Shown: positions 16,604 to 62,982, counted from the first letter of the stretch. The stretch is 64,000 nt of DNA from a virus (IMGVR_UViG_2974549561_000001:1-64000); one strand, 5' to 3'. Notes: generated by a model not told the origin, from the letters alone. Translations and numbers: made by a program.

Positions 16604-16673
16604 TTTTTCTCCAAATTTGCATCAACCTTCAATCACCAGCTCGAAATGGTGATTCTTTGCACTTAGAAAACGA

Positions 16674-16690
16674 AATTTATTAGAGCAAAT
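16674..16690. promoter_or_regulatory. C1 operator (Op53-equivalent) between ant and kilA
   Basis: AAATTTATTAGAGCAAA, 16/17 to reverse complement of consensus. Confidence 0.6.
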
Positions 16691-39578: not shown

Positions 39579-42566
39579 ATGAGCTTAAGCGATCAGGTGG
39601 TTATGGCCACCAGCATAGAAACGCTGATCGAGCTGCTAAAGAACCTGCCCGATTACGGGCGGGTTTCGTATGTGGTGACAGCGAAGGGAGACGAGGTAAA
39701 AACGGCGTTTGATATCGTCGATGCCTCAGCTCTTTTGGTATCCAATACTCTGGATGGGAAAATTAATCCAGACTATCCCCAGGAACTTCAGCCGCGCGAC
39801 CGGACCCGCGCATCCAGCCTTCTTCAGGTCAACCAGATATCCAAGGATTTGCGTCCTGCCCAGCTTACCGATTCCGGTTTATCCAGCCATGGCGCGCCGA
39901 TAATTGGTGAGGACAATGCCGTTGAGTCAGGTAATGGGCGGACCATGGGGATCATCAAAGCCTATCAGGACGGCAATGCGGATCGGTATCGTGAGTACCT
40001 GATTGAACATGCGACCGAATTCGGCATACGACCTGAAAAGGTTGAATCAATGACGGCTCCGGTACTGGTGCGCCGCCGGTTAACTAAGGTTGACCGCGTT
40101 CAGTTTGCCAAGGACTCAAATATTTCTGATCTTCAGGAAATGGCAGCCAGTGAAAAGGCTTTTGTTGATGCCGACAGCATAACACCGGCGATGATGGCGC
40201 TTTTTAACCCGTCAGAAAGCGGAGATCTGCTTAGCCGCAGTAATGACGCGTTTATTCGCGGATTTATGACGCAAGTTGGTGCCACACAGGCGGCTGGCCT
40301 TGTAACTGAAGATGGGCGACCAACACGGCAACTTGTAGACCGTATACAAAACGCGATCTTTGCCAAGGCATATAAGGATGCGCGCCTGGTAAGAATGGTT
40401 GCAGAAGAACCTGATCCGGATATGCGTAATGTTCTGACGGCGCTTAATGCGGCAGCCAATGATTTTGTCCAGATGCAGGCTTTATCAGGAGAAGCGCACA
40501 AGCAGGCTGTGACAACTATTGTTGATGGTATTGAGACAGCGGATAGTCTCGATAAAAAGGCGCTGGCGGCATTGAAAGATGCGGTAGACCTGGTAAGGCA
40601 ATCGAAGGAGTCAGGCCAACATATTACCGATGTTATTGCTCAGGGGGATATGTTCAGCGAAACAGCCCCGGAAGTGAAAGCTCTCGCGTTGTTCATCGTC
40701 GCGAATAACCGTAGCGCGAAGCGTATGGCCACCGCCTTTAAATTGATGGCTCAACGTATCAATGATGAGTTACAGCACCAGGGCCAGGCGCTGGGGGATA
40801 TGTTTGGCGGTGGTGATGTGTCGTTACAGGATATCCTTCGCCAGGTGTCTCAGGAACTGGAAAACGAAGGCATGCAAGGGATATCCGGCGGTCTTTTCGA
40901 GTCCGTTTCCGGCGGTAGTTACAACGGTGTTGCTCCATATACCAGTTTGCTATTACATCGGGCATCCGGCATCAAAGACATTATTCATCTGATCAGGCTG
41001 CTTTCCCGTACAGATCCCCAGGATGAACAGCTTGTACAAGTGCTTGCGCATTTTGTTCGAATGCCTGTTGCCGACGTGAATAAATGGTGCCGATTATTCG
41101 GTATCAGCAATTCGTTACTTCGCGGATTGTTAAATCACGCATCCTCCCTTGGGCGCGACGGCTTTGATGAGATAGCGCAGGCGATAAAAAACGGAGATAT
41201 GCCACCAGCTATTGACTGGTTTTCCATTCGCCCAACCAGGGTGAAAGCATTCCTTAGCGCGGCGCATTCGGCATCACCATTGGCAGAAATGATTCAGAGG
41301 TTGTCGCTCATATTCACAGACCATACCGCGTTGGGTGATCTGACTCTGGACGAGATGAAAGAAGCCTCCATTCAGTGGGCCGATCAACAAAATGAGGTTA
41401 ACTCAGACTTCTTGCCAGCATTCAGGAAGGCCGTTAGTAAAGCGGATGATGCCCGTGGAATTCTGAAGGCATTTAAGGCATTGCAAAGTCGGGTTAATAA
41501 ACATGTCGGTGATATCGATGGGGTAACGGCGGAAGGCAGGGATATCCTTAAAGAGCACGGCATAACGCCAGAGTTTATTGATGAGATCAGGACGGATATG
41601 CAGCGTGAGGTCGTATCGTCCCTGCAAATCGTAGCCAGAGCGTTGGCGGATGCTAATCCGAAGAGTGCGGCCATTGTTAACCGGGTTATTGGTGATATTG
41701 AAGCATCGGAGGGCATGGGGGCGCTGAAACTCTTCCTTTCGCGAGCGTTTAATCCTAACGGCAATATTCTCCCTGGCATTATTGGTGAGGCTAAAAAGTA
41801 TGTCAGTGAAGAAGAACTTGAGCAGCTTGACCAACTACTTAAGCGATTCTCATATAACCCGCAGATACGCTGGCAAATGAATCAGCGAAGTATGGGTTCG
41901 GTCCACGAGAAAGTGTTATCTGCCATGAACAGTGCGATCGCAAACTCATCCGTATCTGAAGAAAAAGCTCTTGAGTGGGCCGACTCTTTTATCACAGAAG
42001 AAGTGGAAGAAGCCCGCGCTGGACAGAATGGTGGGATAGACCTGCGCAAGGAACTTGCTGATATTTATCGCCTGACCGGCGGGAAAATATCGACCTTATC
42101 AAAGGTAGTTCACCACCAGGGAAGGGCATATGCAAATCTTAATGGTGTTGTTGCTGTCAATTTGAACGATGAAAATGCAAGTGCACTGTGGCACGAGCTG
42201 GGTCATCATCTTGAGTACAGTAACCCTGGTTTGTTAGAGAAAGCCCGGTCATTCCTGAAGGCCAATGTTGAAGGGGATAAGCCATCTTTCGTCAATATCG
42301 GTGGGCGTGGCAAGCCTGAATGGTGCTTCAGATCTCGATTGAGTAATATTTATATGGCGAAGGTATACCCGCCAGCCTCAGTAAGTAACACCGGGAAAAT
42401 TCGGCAGAAATCACCGACTATTTCCAAAACGTCAGCAACGGAAGTATTCTCTATGGCTCTTCAGTTGTATCATGACAAAGAGGCCGCTGCCGCATCACTG
42501 ATGAATGGTGACGGATTGCTGGAACTGTTATTAGGTGTGGCAAAGGAGCTAAATAATGCAGATTAA
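39579..42566 (+). CDS. ddrB: DdrB
   Basis: 995 aa following ddrA; assignment by synteny and size. Confidence 0.6.
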   Translation: MSLSDQVVMATSIETLIELLKNLPDYGRVSYVVTAKGDEVKTAFDIVDASALLVSNTLDGKINPDYPQELQPRDRTRASSLLQVNQISKDLRPAQLTDSGLSSHGAPIIGEDNAVESGNGRTMGIIKAYQDGNADRYREYLIEHATEFGIRPEKVESMTAPVLVRRRLTKVDRVQFAKDSNISDLQEMAASEKAFVDADSITPAMMALFNPSESGDLLSRSNDAFIRGFMTQVGATQAAGLVTEDGRPTRQLVDRIQNAIFAKAYKDARLVRMVAEEPDPDMRNVLTALNAAANDFVQMQALSGEAHKQAVTTIVDGIETADSLDKKALAALKDAVDLVRQSKESGQHITDVIAQGDMFSETAPEVKALALFIVANNRSAKRMATAFKLMAQRINDELQHQGQALGDMFGGGDVSLQDILRQVSQELENEGMQGISGGLFESVSGGSYNGVAPYTSLLLHRASGIKDIIHLIRLLSRTDPQDEQLVQVLAHFVRMPVADVNKWCRLFGISNSLLRGLLNHASSLGRDGFDEIAQAIKNGDMPPAIDWFSIRPTRVKAFLSAAHSASPLAEMIQRLSLIFTDHTALGDLTLDEMKEASIQWADQQNEVNSDFLPAFRKAVSKADDARGILKAFKALQSRVNKHVGDIDGVTAEGRDILKEHGITPEFIDEIRTDMQREVVSSLQIVARALADANPKSAAIVNRVIGDIEASEGMGALKLFLSRAFNPNGNILPGIIGEAKKYVSEEELEQLDQLLKRFSYNPQIRWQMNQRSMGSVHEKVLSAMNSAIANSSVSEEKALEWADSFITEEVEEARAGQNGGIDLRKELADIYRLTGGKISTLSKVVHHQGRAYANLNGVVAVNLNDENASALWHELGHHLEYSNPGLLEKARSFLKANVEGDKPSFVNIGGRGKPEWCFRSRLSNIYMAKVYPPASVSNTGKIRQKSPTISKTSATEVFSMALQLYHDKEAAAASLMNGDGLLELLLGVAKELNNAD

Positions 42567-42867
42567 AATCGCAGCGCCATTAGGTGGAGATGCCATTATC
42601 GAATTTGATGATAATGAAGAAGTTTCCGGGCGTTTAAGCATTATCTCCGGTGACATTACCGAGGACATGATCGCTGAAGCCATAGCTGGGGCAAATCCCA
42701 ATAGCTATATGGGATTCGTTAACACCCTTGATGCTCCCGCAAGTGATGTTCTCCGAACGCTGCATCTTTACGCTGGCTGGTTTGTTGATTGGCCAGCAGT
42801 AGATGGTGGCGATGAGGACGACGACGACGATGATTTTGGTGATCATGTAGACCAGATCGTATATTGA
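42556..42867 (+). CDS. small acidic protein ending the Dar operon
   Basis: 103 aa, AAGGAG SD; very acidic C-terminus DGGDEDDDDDDFGDHVD. Confidence 0.5.
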   Translation: MQIKIAAPLGGDAIIEFDDNEEVSGRLSIISGDITEDMIAEAIAGANPNSYMGFVNTLDAPASDVLRTLHLYAGWFVDWPAVDGGDEDDDDDDFGDHVDQIVY

Positions 42868-42871
42868 AGAA

Positions 42872-42898
42872 ATCCCGCCAGTCGGCGGGATTTTTTTT
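42872..42898. terminator. bidirectional rho-independent terminator
   Basis: CCCGCC-agtc-GGCGGG hairpin with TTTTTTTT; also ends the convergent minus-strand gene. Confidence 0.7.
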
Positions 42899-43679
42899 AA
42901 TCGCTTTCCACTTCTTCCGTGGTGTTTTCTTGCAGTTCTGTTAATGCAGCACGACATAGGTTCCGGGCATTGGCTATAGCCACACTTTTGACTTCATCCG
43001 TCATCGTGCAGGTAATGTACTGATCGAGTTCTTCAGCGCGGATGATGCTTTTGCCAATCAGAAACTGTATTTGCCAGAGCAGATCGGCATCCATAATCAG
43101 AATTTCTGCCGGGCCTTCAGGGCCAGCCGGGAAGGAAACATAAGACTGTTTGCCCAGGCCGACAACTCGACAACTTGCTTCAAGAATTGCGCGCTTGAGG
43201 TCTGACTTTATAACGGAAACAGGTTGATTTTCACCAGTGATTACGCCGTTGACATGGAAAGGCATGTAGCTTGAAATACGCTCCACTTTCCACACGCCAG
43301 CAAGCGATCCTTCATGCAGCACAATGGGGGTAACCGCGAGTTTCATCTCACCATATAGCTGCTGGCAGATAGCTGGATTGCTGAATACATCTAAAGGCTC
43401 ACATTCAAACAGCGGCGCAATCTGCATGAGGTCCATCATGGTCATCCCTGGGGTACGAGCAGTAATGAATCTGCGCATACCAGTATCCATTGCGCTCCAG
43501 ATTGCTACACCATGCTTTTTGCTCACTTCTTCAGTAAAGCCAAGGTGGCACATGATGGTTTTTTCGATAGCCAGATCAGAGATCGAAACCTTTTCGCCAG
43601 GCACACCATCATTATTGATGGTCACTTCGACACTCTGACCATTACGCAGGCGGTATTGAATTGCTTTAGTATTTTCCAT
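42897..43679 (-). CDS. hypothetical protein (last gene of ssb operon)
   Basis: 260-aa ORF with GGAG SD; no family recognised. Confidence 0.5.
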   Translation of the reverse strand: MENTKAIQYRLRNGQSVEVTINNDGVPGEKVSISDLAIEKTIMCHLGFTEEVSKKHGVAIWSAMDTGMRRFITARTPGMTMMDLMQIAPLFECEPLDVFSNPAICQQLYGEMKLAVTPIVLHEGSLAGVWKVERISSYMPFHVNGVITGENQPVSVIKSDLKRAILEASCRVVGLGKQSYVSFPAGPEGPAEILIMDADLLWQIQFLIGKSIIRAEELDQYITCTMTDEVKSVAIANARNLCRAALTELQENTTEEVESD

Positions 43680-43685
43680 GTTAAA

Positions 43686-44363
43686 TCACTCCACTACAAA
43701 CCAGTCACATGCCAGTAAGTCGCCTACAGAAGGAACCCACGGAACAACTACACCTTGTGCATTTTTTAAGGCGAAATAAGCACCATACGGAACGAGGTCG
43801 CCGGGGAAATATCCCTTAATGGCTTCCATTCGTGCCGGGTACTGTCCTTCAGGAACCAGCCAGCAGAATTGGTTTTCGCCGTTCCACCCGCGTCGGGCAA
43901 CTTTCTTGCCATCCTTCAGCCACATCAGCGCGTCAGAAAAGTCGGCTGCTTCAAGGTCGATTTCTTCTTGTAGAGTAGCGATACCGCCAGCAGAAATAGT
44001 TACGTCCCTGGCTGTAATGAATGTCACCCCATTGTGACCTTCAATGCTGAGCGATACCCCATTTTCGAAGAAGTCGTTAGTCCGACTAAAGCCTTCTTCA
44101 AATGTTTTTTCTGGTGAATAGGACAGAGAACCGTCCTCATAAGCGACCAGATATCCGCCAATTTCTGGTCGGTGTTTTTGCAAAAATATTTTATCAACAT
44201 GGACTTTTACCCCTTCTGGCTCAACGACTTCGATGTTGCAAAAAAGGACCACATCCATTAGGGCGATAATTTCGATATCTTTGATTTTTGAGGCGCGAAC
44301 TGTTTTATGGCTTTTGTATTTTGGAAGTGCCGTAAAAAGCTCTTTCGTTGTCATGTTATTCAT
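43686..44363 (-). CDS. DUF2829 (Tad2-like) domain protein
   Basis: C-terminal ALMWLKDGKKVARRGWNGENQF...PWVPSVGDLLACDWFVVE matches DUF2829 pattern from memory; ATG 44363 after GAGGAA chosen over 44531. Confidence 0.55.
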   Translation of the reverse strand: MNNMTTKELFTALPKYKSHKTVRASKIKDIEIIALMDVVLFCNIEVVEPEGVKVHVDKIFLQKHRPEIGGYLVAYEDGSLSYSPEKTFEEGFSRTNDFFENGVSLSIEGHNGVTFITARDVTISAGGIATLQEEIDLEAADFSDALMWLKDGKKVARRGWNGENQFCWLVPEGQYPARMEAIKGYFPGDLVPYGAYFALKNAQGVVVPWVPSVGDLLACDWFVVE

Positions 44364-44560
44364 AGTCTTTCCTCTGCTTAAAACCTGATGTATTGCGCCT
44401 TCAGGTGGGTCAGGAATGTTTTCCCACCAGCGAACGCAATATCTCGGGGTGTTCTTTTCGTGAAAAGCGCGTGCCATTGCCAACTTTGGCGTTTGTTTGC
44501 GAGTTCGTGCTTTTGTCGGCGTCTGGACCATCGCTTTTCTTTCAGTCGTTTTTTACACAT

Positions 44561-45049
44561 TCAAAACGGAATATCGTCGTCAAAGTCCATTGGAGGTTCG
44601 TTATTGGCGTTGCTCTGAGGTTTACCGCCACCACTGTATTGCTGGTGGTTTTGAGGTTGGTTTGATTGCCCCCAGCCATTTGAGGACTGTGAATCGTCAC
44701 GGCGAGCGCCGATCATTTGCATGGTGCCGCCCTGGCTGACGATAATTTCCGTCGTGTAACGTTCTACACCGGCGTCATCTGTCCACTTACGGGTTTTAAG
44801 TTTCCCTTCGATGTAGACCTGAGAACCTTTTCGTAAATACTCACTCGCAATTTCAGCAAGTTTTCCGAACAAAACGACTTTATGCCATTCTGTTTGCTCT
44901 TTCTGTTGGCCCGTTTGCTTGTCGCGCCATGATTCATTCGTTGCGATGCTGAGTCTTCCGACCGCTCCGCCATTTGGTATATACCTGATCTCCGGGTCTT
45001 GCCCCAGGGTACCAATCAGGATGACTTTGTTTACACCGCGTTGTGCCAT
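44561..45049 (-). CDS. ssb: single-stranded DNA-binding protein
   Basis: 162 aa; OB-fold N-terminus, Gly/Gln-rich tail ending acidic DFDDDIPF. Confidence 0.9.
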
Positions 45050-45068
45050 TTATCTTACCTAATAAAAT

Positions 45069-45085
45069 AAATTAATTAGAGCAAT
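45069..45085. promoter_or_regulatory. C1 operator-like site between ssb and lyz
   Basis: AAATTAATTAGAGCAAT, 16/17 to reverse complement of consensus. Confidence 0.55.
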
Positions 45086-45104
45086 AATGTATATCTTTGA
45101 AACG

Positions 45105-45135
45105 TAGCTAACAAGTGATTTGCATTATCCTATGC
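45105..45135 (+). promoter_or_regulatory. candidate late promoter upstream of lyz
   Basis: TAACAAGTGATTTGCATTAT, shared late motif. Confidence 0.35.
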
Positions 45136-56388: not shown

Positions 56389-57519
56389 TTACACAGTATC
56401 AATGTGTCTGCTAAGGAATCTCCCGAACTGATTTGTTGACCCAAAATAGTTAGGATAAGCCTTTTTAAGAGATTTAATGTTGTTAGTGGCAAGCAGCACC
56501 GCAATTAATACTTCAGGATCCGCATCATCCTTATTAAGTTCCTGGAGGGCTTGTTCCGATTCTTTTTTCCTAAAAGGTTTCACAGAAACAAGAAACTTTC
56601 CAGTATCCTTGCCATTTTTTGTTATGGCGTTTCTCATCCTCACCAAAAAGAATCCATTATGGTTTTTGGGCAGGCTTTTCTTTAGGTTTGCATCTGATGT
56701 CAGCTTCATTGCAAATGTATATGTACTTAATTTTGAGCGAACAGATAAAGCCTCCTCCAATGTTTTAAGCTCTGTTTGATAATTTTTGATGGTTTCATCA
56801 TCAAGAATACAGGCACCTTCATCATGAGCAACTAGGCATCCAGAAAGATAAAAAAATCTTCTCCACTCAGGGTGACCTTCATTAGAAGTTTTCAGCTTAA
56901 TATTTTCAAGTGTATCTATTATCTCCAGACTTGTTGCCCAAGCATGTTGGAGTTCTGTTCTTAGTTGTACTTCGATTTTAGTTTTACTCCACGGATTGTT
57001 ACCGTTTTCTTCATCAAAACAACTATATGCAAGGTGAATGCCACTATATCCGCTTGGCTTTGGAGTTAAATAGTCATATTCCTTTAAGATTTTATGCTTG
57101 GAGCGACTTTTAACTAGTCGGTCTTTTAGTTTCTTTAGTTGTTCGATGTTTCTAACTATAGCTCTACATCCGCCAATATCCTGCATTCTAGTAAGGGCTA
57201 TTGCATTATTTGTTGCGCCGCCGTCAAGACTTGGACGCTCCAGTTTATCAATTATTGTGCTAAGTCTTTTTAGGCGTCTTGCAACAATAATCTTATTCTC
57301 TTTATCAACTTTTTTTGCAGCCCTATCAAGATGATTTTTCATTAGCATCAATGGATATAAATGAAGCTCGCGGAAATTTTGAATCATTTTAATTGCTTCT
57401 TCTCGCTCTGCGCCCTCACAACCATGTCTAATTTTTCTGGCTGCTTTTTCTATTTGAGATTTCGAATATTTAAGCTCGCATTTTTGGCTTTGATATACTT
57501 CACTGCCCATTACTAACAT
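56389..57519 (-). CDS. CapRel-like fused toxin-antitoxin (RelA/SpoT toxSAS domain plus C-terminal regulatory domain)
   Basis: DIGGCRAIV, YSGIHLAY and EVQLRTELQHAWA motifs of the RelA/SpoT synthetase fold in the N-terminal two-thirds; about 130-aa C-terminal extension; start codon ambiguous (TTG 57528, ATG 57519/57510). Confidence 0.6.
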   Translation of the reverse strand: MLVMGSEVYQSQKCELKYSKSQIEKAARKIRHGCEGAEREEAIKMIQNFRELHLYPLMLMKNHLDRAAKKVDKENKIIVARRLKRLSTIIDKLERPSLDGGATNNAIALTRMQDIGGCRAIVRNIEQLKKLKDRLVKSRSKHKILKEYDYLTPKPSGYSGIHLAYSCFDEENGNNPWSKTKIEVQLRTELQHAWATSLEIIDTLENIKLKTSNEGHPEWRRFFYLSGCLVAHDEGACILDDETIKNYQTELKTLEEALSVRSKLSTYTFAMKLTSDANLKKSLPKNHNGFFLVRMRNAITKNGKDTGKFLVSVKPFRKKESEQALQELNKDDADPEVLIAVLLATNNIKSLKKAYPNYFGSTNQFGRFLSRHIDTV

Positions 57520-57622
57520 CCAGTTCAAATGATTAATGTGTTGTTACATATAATAACAAATCAAGCTAGAAATCAATGGGTATGAAAATGAAACATACCC
57601 ATAATGTTACCTAACGTAACTA

Positions 57623-58264
57623 TTATAAATAGTTCTGTTTACCTGTTAATTCTCCTTGCGGCACTTGTTTTTGCGTTAGTGTTTGAGTTCCGCGAATTAT
57701 GTTAATCAGGGGACTTAGTAATGATGGTTCCTGATGGGCCTCAACTTCTCCAGCCATTGCCCTGATGTAGTCGGCGCTGGCAACGTTGTTGTATTCCGTC
57801 GCAAAGCAACATAGTAACGTCAGAACATGTTCTGTCGTTATTTCGCTCCAGTTGATGTTGAAAAATTCATCGCCTTTTTTATCGTGTTCGGAATCGAAGA
57901 TGCTTTGGTGAAGGATGTATTTGCCGGATTCCTTGCGCGGTAACTTGATCGCTTTCTGGCGTTCCAATTCCTTGTAAATCTGCATTGCTTCAATCAGTAC
58001 CGGTCTGCCGTTCATGAAGGGATCACGCAACCTTACACGCTGGCCAACTCGACCGGTAATAAAGCTGTTTTCCTCTTCCACCAGCACGATAAAACCCTTT
58101 TCCTCTTTTTCTCGCAATTCGCGCAGCAGCTGGAGTTCCATATCGCGGCGGCGTTCAGGGTAGCTGGTCCGCTCAGCCATTATCAGCTCATTGTTGATCC
58201 ATGCAGCAGTCATTGACGCCGGTTTGCCGACGCTCATTGAAACAACGCATATTTTCTTATCCAT
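57623..58264 (-). CDS. ref: Ref-like protein (recombination enhancement function position)
   Basis: 213 aa from ATG 58264 (185 aa from a later ATG); charged N-terminus, His-rich HQSIFDSEHD...NINWSEITTEH segment; operator-like site upstream. Confidence 0.4.
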   Translation of the reverse strand: MDKKICVVSMSVGKPASMTAAWINNELIMAERTSYPERRRDMELQLLRELREKEEKGFIVLVEEENSFITGRVGQRVRLRDPFMNGRPVLIEAMQIYKELERQKAIKLPRKESGKYILHQSIFDSEHDKKGDEFFNINWSEITTEHVLTLLCCFATEYNNVASADYIRAMAGEVEAHQEPSLLSPLINIIRGTQTLTQKQVPQGELTGKQNYL

Positions 58265-58445
58265 AGCGCCCCTACAAAAAAGAAAAGCCACCAGCGGCGG
58301 CTTAGCAATACAACTGAAGGTAGCGCCCGGTACTCAGACTGTGCCGTCCATGGAATATTTGAAAAGGGATCCATCCGTACCGGGCGTGTGATGATTCTGA
58401 CTCAAGTCACTTGTCAGTTGTCAATCATTTAAGATTAAAAATAAT

Positions 58446-58479: not shown

Positions 58480-58517
58480 GGGGAGCCCGCAGAATTCGGA
58501 AAAAATCGTACGCTAAG
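58480..58517. repeat. Tn1721-type 38-bp terminal inverted repeat
   Basis: GGGGAGCCCGCAGAATTCGGAAAAAATCGTACGCTAAG read directly; tnpA stop lies inside it. Confidence 0.85.
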
Positions 58518-61479
58518 GTTTTCCGGGCATCCGTAAGGGCCGAAACTTCCCGTCTTCCAGTCTGCGGCTCTGCCGCCAGACGTAATCGCCGGTTAGGTTG
58601 ATGTGCTCCCAGCCCAGCGGCGACAGGAATTGCAGCAGCTCGCCGTCCACCGGCTTGCCGGCCTCGACCAACCCCTGGGTGGCGCGTTCCAGGTACACCG
58701 TGTTCCACAGCACGATAGCCGCCGTCACCAGGTTGAGGCCGCTGGCCCGGTAGCGCTGCTGCTCGAAGCTCCGATCCCTGATTTCCCCAAGGCGGTTGAA
58801 GAACACCGCCCTGGCCAGCGAGTTGCGCGCCTCACCTTTGTTCAGGCCGGCATGCACGCGGCGGCGCAGTTCAACACTTTGCAGCCAGTCCAGGATGAAC
58901 AGCGTGCGCTCGATCCGGCCCAGCTCGCGCAGGGCCACGGCCAGTCCGTTCTGGCGCGGGTAGCTGCCGAGCTTGCGCAGCATCAGCGAGGCGGTGACGG
59001 TGCCCTGCTTGATCGAGCTGGCCAGGCGCAGGATGTCGTCCCAGTGGGCACGCACGTGCTTGATGTTCAGGGTGCCGCCGATCAGCGGGCGCAACGTCGG
59101 GTAGGCTTGCACGCCCTGCGGCACGTACAGCTTGGTTTCGCCGAGGTCGCGGATGCGCGGCGCGAAGCGGAAGCCTAGCAGGTGCATCAGGGCAAAGACG
59201 TGATCGGTGAAGCCGGCCGTGTCGGTGTAGTGCTCCTCGATCCGCAGGTCGGACTCGTGGTACAGCAGGCCGTCGAGCACATAGGTGGAATCGCGGACGC
59301 CGACATTCACCACGCGGGTGCTGAACGGCGCGTACTGGTCGGAGATATGGGTATAGAACAGCCGTCCCGGCTCGCTACCGTACTTCGGGTTGACGTGCCC
59401 GGTGCTCTCGCCCCGGCCACCCGCGCGGAAGCGCTGGCCATCGGAGGATGAGGTCGTGCCGTCGCCCCAGTGGGCGGCAAAGGCGTGGCGATACTGGTGG
59501 TTGACCAGCTCGGCCAAGGCCGCCGAATAGGTTTCGTCGCGGATGTGCCAGGCTTGCAGCCAGGACAGCTTGGCGTAGGTCAGGCCGGGGCTCGACTCGG
59601 CCATCTTGGTCAGCCCGAGGTTGATCGCATCACCGAGGATTGCGGACAGCAGCAACGTCCTGTCTTTGGCCTCGGCCCCGTCCTTCAAGTGGGTGAAGTG
59701 GCGGCTGAAGCCCGTCCAGTCGTCCACGTCCATCAGCAGTTCGGTGATCTTGATGCGCGGCAGTAACTGGCTGGTTTGGTCGATCAGCGCCTGCGCCCGA
59801 TCCGGCACCGCCGCATCCAGCGGGGTGATTTTCAGCCCTGACTCGGTGAGGATGGCATCGGGCAGCTCGTTGTCCTTGGCCAGGCGGGTGACGGTGGCCA
59901 ACTGCTCGTCCAGCAGCTGCAAACGCTCTTCCAGGTACTGGTCGCTGTTCGGGTTGATCGCCAGGGGCAGGGCCTGCTCGCGCTTGAGTGCGGCGAACTT
60001 CTCGGCCGGCAGCAGGTAGTCGTCGAAGTCGCGGAACTGCCGCGAGCCCTTGACCCAGATGTCGCCGGAGCGCAGGGCGTTCTTCAGCTCGGACAGGGCG
60101 CAGATTTCGTAGAATTTCCGGTCGAGGCCTTCCGGGGTGATCACCAGCGGCTTCCAGCGCGGCTTGATGAAGGCCGTGGGTGCATCGGCCGGCACCTTGC
60201 GCAGGTTGTCGGCGTTCATCTCACGCAGGGTCTGCACGGCTGCCAGCACGCCTTGCGCGGCCGGCGCGGCGCGCAGTTCCAGCACCTCCAGCAAGGCCGG
60301 CGTGTAACGGCGCAGGGTGGCGAAGTTCTCGCCGACCAGGTGCAGGTGGTCGAAGCCTTCCGGCCGGGCCAGCAGCTCGGCCTCGCTGACGCTCTCGGTG
60401 AACTCGTCCCAGGGAATCACCGCCTCGATGGCGGCATAGGGGTCGCTGCCGCTTTCCTTCGCTTCCAGCAGCGCCTGGCCGATCCTGGAGTACAGGCGCA
60501 CCTTGTCGTTGATCGCCTTGCCCTGCTTCTGGAACTGCTGCTGATGCTTGTGCTTCGCGCCGCTGAACAGCTTGACCAGGATGCGGTCATGCAGATCGAC
60601 CAGCTCATCGATCACGGTCGCGGTGCTCTCCAGCACCACGGCGGCCAGGGTCGCGTAGCGGCGCTGCGGCTCGAACTTACCGAGGTCTTTGGGCGTCATC
60701 TGCCCACCCTCGCGGGCCAGCTTGAGCAGGCGGTTCTGGTGGATGTGCCGGCCCAGGCCTTCGGGCAAGTCCACCAACTGAAATGTCTTCAGCCGCTCGA
60801 TGTGTTCCAGCATGTGCCGAGAGTTGGGTTTCAGCGGTGCCTGGCGCAGCCAGGTCAACCAGGTGATGCTGCTGCCGGCCTTGAGCTTCAACAGCTCGTC
60901 CAGCTTGGCCCGATGCGAGTCCGTGAGTGGTTCGACCAGGGCGCGGTAGACCCGCCGATTGGCTCGCGCAATGGCTTCCGAGCAGGCCCGGTCAATCACG
61001 CTCAGCGCCGGCAGGATGCGTCGTTTCTGCCGTAGGCTCTCCAGGGCCTGACCGGCCAGCAGCAAGCCTTTGTCGGTCTGCTGGGCCAGCTCGGTTAGCT
61101 CGCGCACCAGGGCGCGGAAGTCGGACAGGCCGAACGGGGCCAGTTGCAGGTAGGTGCGCAGTTCCTGGGCATGCTCGCGACGGGTCACGTCGCGCTCGCC
61201 GTACTTTGCCCAGCTCGCCGGCTCGGCCTGGACTTGCTTCGCCACCCACAGGATGACCGGCTCGGGCAGCTCGCTGTCGGTTCCCAGCGCGTAACCGGGG
61301 TAGCGCAGCAGGCAGAGCTGCACGGCGAAGCCGAGGCGGTTGGCGTCGCCGCGTCGCTGGCGGATCAGCGACAGGTCGGAGTCGTTGAAGGTGTAGTAGC
61401 GGATCAGGTCATCCTGGCTTTCCGGCAGCGCAAGCAGGGTGTCCCGCTCCGTGGCCGAGAGGATCAAGCGACGCGGCAT
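58513..61479 (-). CDS. tnpA: Tn3-family transposase TnpA
   Basis: 988 aa; closely resembles Tn21/Tn1721 TnpA from memory. Confidence 0.95.
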
Positions 61480-61482
61480 GTG

Positions 61483-62043
61483 TCAGTCGTCCGTGCGGAG
61501 GTACTGGTAGAGGGTTTCCCGGCTGATGTTGAACTCGCGGGCAAGCTGCGCCTTGGGCTCGCCGGCCGTCGCTCGCTGCCGCAGGGTAGCAGCCTGCTCA
61601 TCGGACAGGGCTTTCTTGCGGCCCCGGTACGCGCCACGCTGCTTGGCCAAGGCGATGCCCTCACGCTGCCGCTCGCGGATCAGGGCGCGCTCGAACTCAG
61701 CGAAGGCCCCCATCACCGACAGCATCAGGTTGGCCATCGGCGAGTCCTCGCCAGTGAACACCAGGCCCTCCTTCAGGAACTCGATGCGCACGCCGCGCTG
61801 AGTCAGCTTCTGTACCAAGCGACGCAGGTCATCGAGGTTGCGGGCCAGCCGATCCATGCTATGCACCACCACTGTATCGCCTTCGCGGACGAAGCTCAGC
61901 AGCGCTTCGAGCTGGGGGCGCTGGGTGTCCTTGCCCGATGCCTTGTCGGTGAACACCTTGCTCACCTGGGTTTGTTCCAGCTGGCGTTCCGGGTTCTGGT
62001 CAAAGCTGCTGACCCGGACGTAGCCGATGCGGTGCCCCTGCAC
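61483..62043 (-). CDS. tnpR: serine resolvase TnpR
   Basis: 186 aa; MQGHRIGYVRVSSFDQNPERQ N-terminus typical of Tn1721/Tn21 resolvases. Confidence 0.95.
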   Translation of the reverse strand: MQGHRIGYVRVSSFDQNPERQLEQTQVSKVFTDKASGKDTQRPQLEALLSFVREGDTVVVHSMDRLARNLDDLRRLVQKLTQRGVRIEFLKEGLVFTGEDSPMANLMLSVMGAFAEFERALIRERQREGIALAKQRGAYRGRKKALSDEQAATLRQRATAGEPKAQLAREFNISRETLYQYLRTDD

Positions 62044-62352: not shown

Positions 62353-62982
62353 ATGCGCCAGAATTTACCAGTGACGGGTCGAAACTTAGAACTCCCAAAA
62401 GATGCCAATATTCTTTCGACTACCTCCCCTCAAAGCCATATCACGTACGTTAATCCTGACTTCATTAAAATCAGTGGTTTCACTGAGGAAGAACTATTAG
62501 GCCAGCCTCACAACATCGTAAGACACCCAGATATGCCGCCTGCTGCATTTGAGCATATGTGGAGTACATTAAAATCTGGCCGCTCATGGATGGGGCTAGT
62601 AAAAAATCGCTGTAAAAATGGCGACCACTATTGGGTAAGTGCTTATGTAACGCCAATAGCTAAGAATGGTTCGATTGTTGAATACCAGTCTGTAAGGACC
62701 AAGCCTGAACCTGAGCAGGTTTTGGCTGCGGAAAAATTATATGCTCAATTGAGAAGCGGGAAGGCCGCGAGGCCGAAATTGGCTGCTAGCTTTTCCGTGA
62801 AAATACTCTTGCTCATGTGGGGTAGTATTATATCAAGCGCAATGGCTGCCGGCATGCTTACTGATACATCAATAAGCAGCTTATTGTTACCAGGAATCAA
62901 CGCCTTTACCCGCTGCCGGAGCCTCACCTCAATAGCACTCTCCGGCAGCCGTATTGTTACAGCGAATCAAACTGATAGCTGA
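62353..62982 (+). pseudogene. 5' fragment of the Tn1721 methyl-accepting chemotaxis protein gene
   Basis: PAS-like N-terminal domain; ORF stops after 209 codons where composition changes and a convergent receptor gene begins. Confidence 0.65.

Follow-up and report, generated by a model that had tools for sequence, protein, structure and literature searches.

A Tad2-domain gene in the ssb operon of a P1-like phage-plasmid

We analysed a gene encoding a protein of 225 amino acids (aa) that lies directly downstream of ssb in the viral sequence IMGVR_UViG_2974549561_000001:1-64000 (64,000 nucleotides (nt), hereafter the window) and that joins an N-terminal OB module to a C-terminal domain of the Tad2 family. 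Across this region, the window shares 99% identity with Escherichia phage vB_EcoM-Ro157c2YLVW and, piecewise, 96–98% with phage P1 and its relatives, which places it by sequence among the P1-like phage-plasmids of the genus Punavirus. On the minus strand, ssb is followed by a 197-nt spacer, the 225-aa open reading frame (ORF), 6 nt, a 260-aa ORF and a hairpin, beyond which hxr converges from the plus strand (Table 1). The original prediction for this locus had described both ORFs, ssb immediately upstream of them and a C1-operator-like site ahead of the operon, and all of these were found where it had put them. It had left the N-terminal part of the 225-aa protein and the whole of the 260-aa protein unassigned; the former now divides into an OB fold of the phage L Dec type and a variable linker, and the latter is P1 IsaA.

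Table 1. Coordinates of the ssb operon and adjoining features in the window.
Feature	Position	Strand	Remark
C1 repressor operator-like site (equivalent of P1 Ossb/Op21)	45069-45085	-	one mismatch to consensus
ssb	44561-45049	-	Pfam SSB E=7e-40; annotated ssb in P1
Spacer/leader, 197 nt, ending in GAGG ribosome-binding site	44364-44560	-	
225-aa gene (OB + linker + Tad2)	43686-44363	-	
N-terminal OB-fold domain, phage L Dec type, aa 13-97 of 225-aa protein	44073-44327	-	
Variable linker, aa 98-134 of 225-aa protein	43962-44072	-	beta-strand-rich sequence, low model confidence
Tad2 domain, aa 135-225 of 225-aa protein, plus stop codon	43686-43961	-	
isaA homologue, 260 aa	42897-43679	-	ATG 6 nt after Tad2 stop codon
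Hairpin between convergent isaA and hxr	42870-42893	both	likely bidirectional terminator
hxr, 103 aa, end of ddrB-hxr unit, outside ssb operon	42556-42867	+	P1 annotation; phrog_2292

The stop-to-stop ORF of the 225-aa gene would permit a protein of 281 aa. We favour the ATG at 44363 as the start codon because a GAGG is located 7 nt upstream of it, database homologues of the protein start at MNNM, and the upstream extension is broken by stop codons at differing places in related loci.

The C-terminal domain is closest to ModTad2

The 225-aa gene, which RefSeq labels DUF2829, encodes the two motifs from which the original prediction had recognised this domain, DGKKVARRGWNGEN and PWVPSVGDLLACDWFVVE. 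A profile search recovered the family under its present name, Pfam PF11195 'Tad2-like' (E=2.6e-22; 79.6 bits against a cut-off of 25 bits), with profile positions 2-73 of 73 covered. Among the solved Tad2 structures, the C-terminal 91 aa were closest to ModTad2 (9EIB, 8V3E; E about 6e-21 to 6e-20 in phmmer), followed by HgmTad2/AcrIIA7 (E about 1e-11) and SPO1 Tad2 (E about 1e-9). Identity to ModTad2 was 45% with a single one-residue gap, and the loop length, in the extended β2 region behind the second pocket, was equal within one residue; identity was 37% to SPO1 Tad2 and 44% to HgmTad2, but the latter alignment contained 17 gap positions. The domain therefore appears nearer to ModTad2 than to the Tad2 proteins specific for type I Thoeris, a placement drawn from pairwise E-values and loop length.

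The fold also corresponds to that of Tad2: it has helix α1 and an antiparallel sheet, with two further helices (α2 and α3) placed in the loops. In SPO1 Tad2, the main ligand and water contacts are W25, N26, W73, S76 and D79 (SPO1 Tad2 paper), which align with W160, N161, W209, S212 and D215 of the 225-aa protein. In an alignment of 37 homologues, W160, W209 and D215 were invariant and S212 was at least 90% conserved. Profile, fold and core pocket residues together thus argue for membership of the Tad2 family, in agreement with the original assignment. That interpretation was correct, yet it is not new: in a 2025 preprint, DefenseFinder matches to 'Tad2 AcrIIA7 (anti-Thoeris)' were reported for 56% of P1 and 93% of D6 phage-plasmids, so that the presence of Tad2 in these elements is already published.

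The characterised relatives differ in what they bind. Type I Thoeris is not inhibited by ModTad2, whereas type II Thoeris is, its signal His-ADPR being sequestered; in a second pocket ModTad2 takes up cUMP/cCMP, the signals of Pycsar, and it inhibits that system as well. N7-cADPR, the signal of type IV Thoeris, is a ligand of other Tad2 proteins. Binding of His-ADPR and of cUMP/cCMP has been demonstrated for ModTad2, whereas for the 225-aa protein we infer it. SPO1 Tad2 (Gp34.65; 8SME) and HgmTad2/AcrIIA7 (8KBI) belong to the same PF11195 family, follow the same tetrameric sponge principle and share the core residues, but they are less similar, and their central loop and adenine-side contacts are unlike those of the 225-aa protein. 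The central loop, which builds the second pocket in ModTad2 and HgmTad2, corresponds to aa 160-200 of the 225-aa protein. Homologues that are otherwise close differ here in length and sequence, and the loop has at least four versions among them. One loop-variant clade carries WK instead of the conserved WN pair (REWKGEKQ). This pattern suggests alleles with different ligand preferences. ModTad2 itself, from a Myroides odoratus prophage, is an 89-aa single domain, whereas here the domain forms the C-terminal 91 aa of a protein that has, unlike every characterised Tad2 member, an OB module and a linker.

A Dec-type OB module recurs with counter-defence domains

Structure prediction for the 225-aa protein yielded a small beta barrel at aa 13-97 (pLDDT, predicted local distance difference test, of 83-93), followed by a stretch of low confidence at aa 98-137 (pLDDT <50). 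Among homologues, this linker exists in several unrelated versions, which are beta-strand-rich, helical or of low complexity. The barrel is an OB fold of the phage L Dec type, with profile and fold similarity to Dec (6E3C) along the whole OB domain and the motif PE(I/V)GGYL...F(E)xxY common to both. The two homologous domains are set in different contexts: in Dec, the OB fold is followed by a trimeric spike and the protein binds the capsid late in infection, whereas in the 225-aa protein it is followed by Tad2 and encoded in an early operon. Between the linker and the Dec spike we found no significant similarity.

Most matches in a profile search with the N-terminal region were small proteins consisting of the module alone (85-100 aa), and their signature is sharply conserved (LPxYxCHKVVRAxKI ... 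GGYYVxYxDGYxSYSPxxAFExGY); none of them has a Pfam family. Where the OB module was fused to a Pfam-annotated domain, the partners were only Tad2, Sequestin (PF21825), the Acb2/Tad1 hairpin (PF24729) and T7 Gp5.9 (PF25708), an inhibitor of RecBCD. Sequestin is a 3'cADPR sponge that was itself discovered through its fusion to Tad2 and Acb4, and OB-Tad2-Sequestin triple fusions were present among the relatives of the 225-aa protein (P0064). Double sponges made by fusion are well established. In Acb4-Tad2 of Pasteurella phage Pm86 and in Tad2-Sequestin, too, a linker joins Tad2 to another small phage module that is elsewhere a protein of its own; in those proteins the fused partner is a sponge, whereas here it is a Dec-type OB fold without a Pfam family.

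The OB-Tad2 architecture had already been noticed but was deliberately left unassayed, since sponge homologues with 'PF21825 or PDB 6E3C' were removed ahead of testing in the published screen (Hadary et al. 2025, Methods). The motifs of the 225-aa protein are absent from all 84 tested proteins (Table S2, Hadary et al.), and no paper in the literature searched joined OB-fold, sponge, Thoeris and phage.

In six contigs, the OB module, stand-alone or fused to Sequestin, lies among small early, replication or nin-type genes; this sample is small, and the underlying homology search was word-indexed and biased to closer relatives. In a 66-kb metagenomic phage contig (L091, 3319-5445), a 91-aa Tad2 gene, a stand-alone 85-aa OB gene and an Acb4 (PF13876) gene belong to a single small-gene array upstream of the terminase gene that looks like a counter-defence gene island; the OB gene is behind the Tad2 gene by two positions and ahead of the Acb4 gene by four. 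Two known proteins were rejected as identities for the OB module. Lockin is reported absent from sequenced phages and is hexameric and cog-shaped, and Acb4 (PF13876) was ruled out by the lack of any Pfam match even at E≤1.

The ssb operon carries a putative C1 operator

The C1 consensus, ATTGCTCTAATAAATTT, has four one-mismatch matches in the whole window, against 0.39 expected by chance. The match ahead of ssb occupies the same position as P1 Ossb/Op21 and overlaps the P1-annotated ssb promoters P1ssb/P2ssb, which map to ~45052-45114 in the window; the operator/promoter stretch is 98.7% identical to P1. We relied on the P1 annotation here, as a consensus scan of the ssb upstream region called no promoters. 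The other three matches (601-617, 16673-16689 and 18345-18361, all on the minus strand) presumably represent further C1-controlled operators of this P1-like genome.

Co-transcription of the 225-aa gene with ssb is plausible because a consensus terminator scan found nothing terminator-like on the minus strand between the two genes. The intervening leader is predicted to fold at -52.3 kcal/mol (z -2.35 against shuffled controls). It forms two long hairpins, the second of which is followed by GGUUUUAAG shortly ahead of the ribosome-binding site, and it may act in attenuation or RNA processing. The leader is conserved in P1 ahead of isaA, where the sequence is too similar for a covariation test.

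At the other end of the operon, a G+C-rich hairpin of 10 base pairs separates the 260-aa ORF from hxr, flanked by the stop codons of both. Its predicted energy is -17.1 kcal/mol on the minus strand (z -4.0) and -21.6 kcal/mol on the plus strand (z -4.9). The consensus terminator scan did not list this hairpin, and Rfam gave terminator-like matches below threshold only. The original prediction had placed a bidirectional terminator here; judged by fold energy instead of by the scan, the hairpin is likely one.

The Tad2-domain gene is an optional cassette ahead of isaA

P1 shares the leader, the ribosome-binding site and the ATG of the 225-aa gene, and from there its frame runs on as MTAQNTKTIQYRLRNG..., that is, as isaA. 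Because P1 continues from the identical ATG straight into isaA, the Tad2-domain gene is by this comparison an optional cassette, present or absent exactly between a common translation start and isaA. We examined 80 IMG/VR loci for its distribution. Among P1-type loci, with ssb upstream, 23 had a Tad2-domain gene, every one of them with the OB module, and 34 had none. All 22 D6-type loci carried the gene (0 without); the OB module was present in 16 and absent from six. These counts agree with the published frequencies for P1 and D6.

The 3' half of the 225-aa gene together with the first ~13 isaA codons is 96.8% identical to D6 at the nucleotide level, whereas the IsaA proteins of the window phage and D6 are only about 50% identical. 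Because the Tad2 segment is so much more similar than the flanking IsaA proteins, this indicates that it probably moved between the lineages recently.

In D6, orf114 (L004, 3548-3988) bears an in-frame deletion that joins the first 20 residues of the OB module directly to the linker and Tad2, with the OB core gone, and the gene lies in the cre-side operon after the dUTPase gene, not after ssb. Rearranged forms were seen elsewhere. In a 241-aa protein (P0056), a dUTPase is fused to the linker end and Tad2. In a 306-aa protein (P0023), the N-terminus of the P1 tail fibre (Phage_fiber_2 repeat) is joined within the OB domain, after which Tad2 follows; we rejected the latter as a genuine architecture, since the junction falls inside the OB domain and resembles a recombinant chimera. 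Both seem to have arisen by recombination between genes that are neighbours or homologues. In the P1-type locus L032 (1815-3991), an insertion of ~1.1 kb splits the Tad2-domain gene after profile position ~50, and the domain resumes just before isaA.

A published description lists eight regions in which P1-like elements are highly variable, the interval isaA-IS1-isaB among them. In P1, IS1 and isaB follow isaA, and both are absent from the window phage; P7 has a porin gene (nmpC) instead, between ssb and the hxr-equivalent gene.

IsaA is a conserved accessory protein

The 260-aa ORF is 93.6% identical to P1 isaA (P1_gp017) at the nucleotide level over its whole length, and its product matches phrog_2326 over aa 1-260 (E=1.5e-149), identifying it by sequence as the orthologue of P1 IsaA. 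P1 IsaA is annotated with 320 aa from an upstream GTG, whereas the 260-aa protein starts at the ATG behind the Tad2 stop codon. In P1, the true start is probably the ATG behind GAGA/GAGG, giving a protein of 264 aa that begins MTAQNTK..., and the 320-aa annotation is probably too long. Many database IsaA entries have 264 aa. The comparison suggests that the extra 56 codons of the P1 annotation (L001, NC_005856, 4362-4540) are untranslated ssb-isaA leader.

An AlphaFold2 model of IsaA was of good quality (pLDDT 86.8; predicted template modelling score (pTM) 0.83) and gave no clue to function. Pfam had no match, tested on the protein and 20 family members, and searches of NCBIfam, PADLOC, and PDB sequences and profiles likewise returned nothing. 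The only match in BFVD was a P1 fragment of the same protein, and the literature on 1R7L was uninformative for IsaA function. In the family alignment there was no catalytic-looking invariant set; the C-terminal tail is acidic and variable.

The IsaA family is small, with 20 matches in a word-indexed search. When 1.84 billion representatives were searched exhaustively with a profile, 36 matches emerged, of which ~15 were full-length at 20-30% identity. The distant homologues lie on contigs of ~90 kb with genes for a C1 repressor of the P1/P7 type and for a Cre-like recombinase. In distant loci (L086-L089), a conserved protein of ~170 aa, without a Pfam match, is encoded ahead of isaA; we read it as two winged-helix repeats. 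In a CRISPR interference (CRISPRi) screen of P1, isaA and ssb were non-essential. We regard isaA as a conserved accessory gene of P1/D6-type elements beside which the Tad2 cassette was inserted; a functional partnership of Tad2 and IsaA is possible and is not the reading that we favour.

Other features of the window

Elsewhere in the window, a 379-aa ORF (56389-57528, minus strand) has a RelA/SpoT synthetase domain (Pfam E=3e-13) and matches the PADLOC candidate defence family PDC-S33 (E=5e-87). It lies in a patch of low G+C content (0.40), beside a 222-aa ORF without a match (57623-58291, minus strand). The 379-aa ORF is probably a fused toxin-antitoxin defence gene of the CapRel type, as in the P1-like phage SJ46. 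From 58513-62043 (minus strand) and on to 64000 runs a Tn3-family transposon with a 988-aa transposase and a resolvase (G+C content 0.61-0.66), after which come a PAS-domain ORF (62353-62982) and a TonB-dependent receptor fragment (62957-63982). This region is foreign cargo inserted into the phage-plasmid.

Discussion

Overall, these data suggest a model, which we consider likely, where the 225-aa gene encodes an early, C1-repressed counter-defence protein composed of a Tad2 sponge and a separate OB module. With a C1 operator ahead of the ssb operon, the gene would be expressed at once on infection or induction. By analogy with its solved relatives, the Tad2 domain would assemble into a tetramer that sequesters the signalling nucleotides made by the TIR proteins of Thoeris; with the signal captured, the immune effector would never be switched on. 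As the domain is closest to ModTad2 and its central loop is of equal length, the likeliest ligands would be His-ADPR of type II Thoeris and possibly the cyclic mononucleotides of Pycsar, rather than 3'cADPR alone. The OB module would probably add a second unit for counter-defence or ligand binding and would not bind the capsid, and IsaA, made from the same mRNA, would be an accessory protein that is conserved yet non-essential.

For the OB module, we favour an independent unit linked to counter-defence over a capsid-binding one because of its fusion partners, its early-gene neighbourhoods and the deletion of the OB core in D6. What is new here is the recurrence of this module in the company of four unrelated counter-defence domains; the Tad2 part, from a family already characterised, contributes little. 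Reasoning from fusion partners, by which Sequestin was found, makes it conceivable, though we put this forward tentatively, that the Dec-type OB module is a new and widespread phage counter-defence family, possibly itself a sponge or an inhibitor. If true, the 225-aa protein would be a two-in-one inhibitor.

Several observations weigh against this model. At the ligand, the peripheral and adenine-side contacts of SPO1 Tad2 are changed (T78→G, H71→V, D67→Q and T65→N), as would be expected if the ligand preference differed, and the specificity proposed here is derived from overall similarity to ModTad2. At the level of expression, the structured 197-nt leader could attenuate read-through from ssb, and the hairpin behind isaA has a good U-run on the plus strand and a weaker one on the minus strand (UUUCUUC). 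The only solved relative of the OB module is a capsid decoration protein, and D6 keeps the Tad2 gene without the OB core, which fits a module that is either independent or dispensable. In the distant contigs, isaA is the last gene of an operon after the recombinase and is preceded by the ~170-aa protein or a dUTPase, not by Tad2.

This last arrangement bears directly on the idea that the Tad2 protein and IsaA form a two-part system, in which IsaA would be a second inhibitor or a helper acting on the captured signal. The two genes are only 6 nt apart, and their adjacency is kept in two lineages despite IsaA proteins that are only ~50% identical. It is also kept in two genomic settings, since the pair follows ssb in P1-type loci but belongs to the cre-side operon in 22/22 D6-type loci; the first isaA codons travel with the Tad2 segment. 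Given that the distant phage-plasmid homologues of IsaA are not beside Tad2, we consider such a system unlikely. Another reading is that the gene is a drifting accessory cassette with no current role, its domain recognisable but inactive or binding an unrelated metabolite. The gene is frequently absent, it is interrupted in L032 and truncated or rearranged in D6, P0023 and P0056, and the CRISPRi screen found its neighbours isaA and ssb non-essential. In the window, however, the reading frame is intact. The core residues are invariant over 37 diverse homologues, exact or near-exact copies of the protein are common (453 member sequences in a 99%-identity cluster), and the diversified loop variants resemble selection more than decay; we therefore hold drift to be quite improbable.

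We attach similarly little weight to the proposal that the OB module works like Dec and binds the capsid or another part of the virion, the protein being a virion-associated or decoration protein that carries Tad2. The relationship to Dec speaks for it, but the operon that holds the gene is early and C1-controlled instead of being driven by a late promoter, the stand-alone OB genes of the six other contigs are among early, replication or nin-type genes and not in capsid modules, and the linker does not resemble the Dec spike. Moreover, Tad2 tetramers would clash with the trimeric symmetry of Dec, a sponge on the capsid exterior would have no obvious use, and variants without the OB core exist in P1 and D6. 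Least credible of all, in our estimate, is that the DUF2829 domain is an anti-CRISPR of the AcrIIA7 type directed against Cas9 and not a nucleotide sponge. Those who studied Tad2 make the case for an anti-Thoeris family and point out that no binding to Cas9 was ever demonstrated. The link to AcrIIA7 consists of domain similarity only, and the domain is nearer to ModTad2. The hosts named in the database matches are Escherichia, Shigella and Salmonella, which are not known to carry type II CRISPR-Cas systems.

P1-type phage-plasmids disseminate resistance and toxin genes among Enterobacteriaceae. Nature provides variants for the study of the 225-aa protein: P1 is without the gene at a clean junction, close relatives of P1 have it, and D6 lacks the OB core. 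These variants would permit direct tests of which immune signals of E. coli, those of type II Thoeris or of Pycsar, limit P1-type phage-plasmids. For annotation, the likely start of P1 isaA is corrected, and IsaA takes its place as a conserved, unexplained gene of P1/D6-type elements. Because it recurs with four unrelated counter-defence domains, the OB module is a concrete candidate for a further inhibitor family, one that is invisible to fusion searches based on Pfam.

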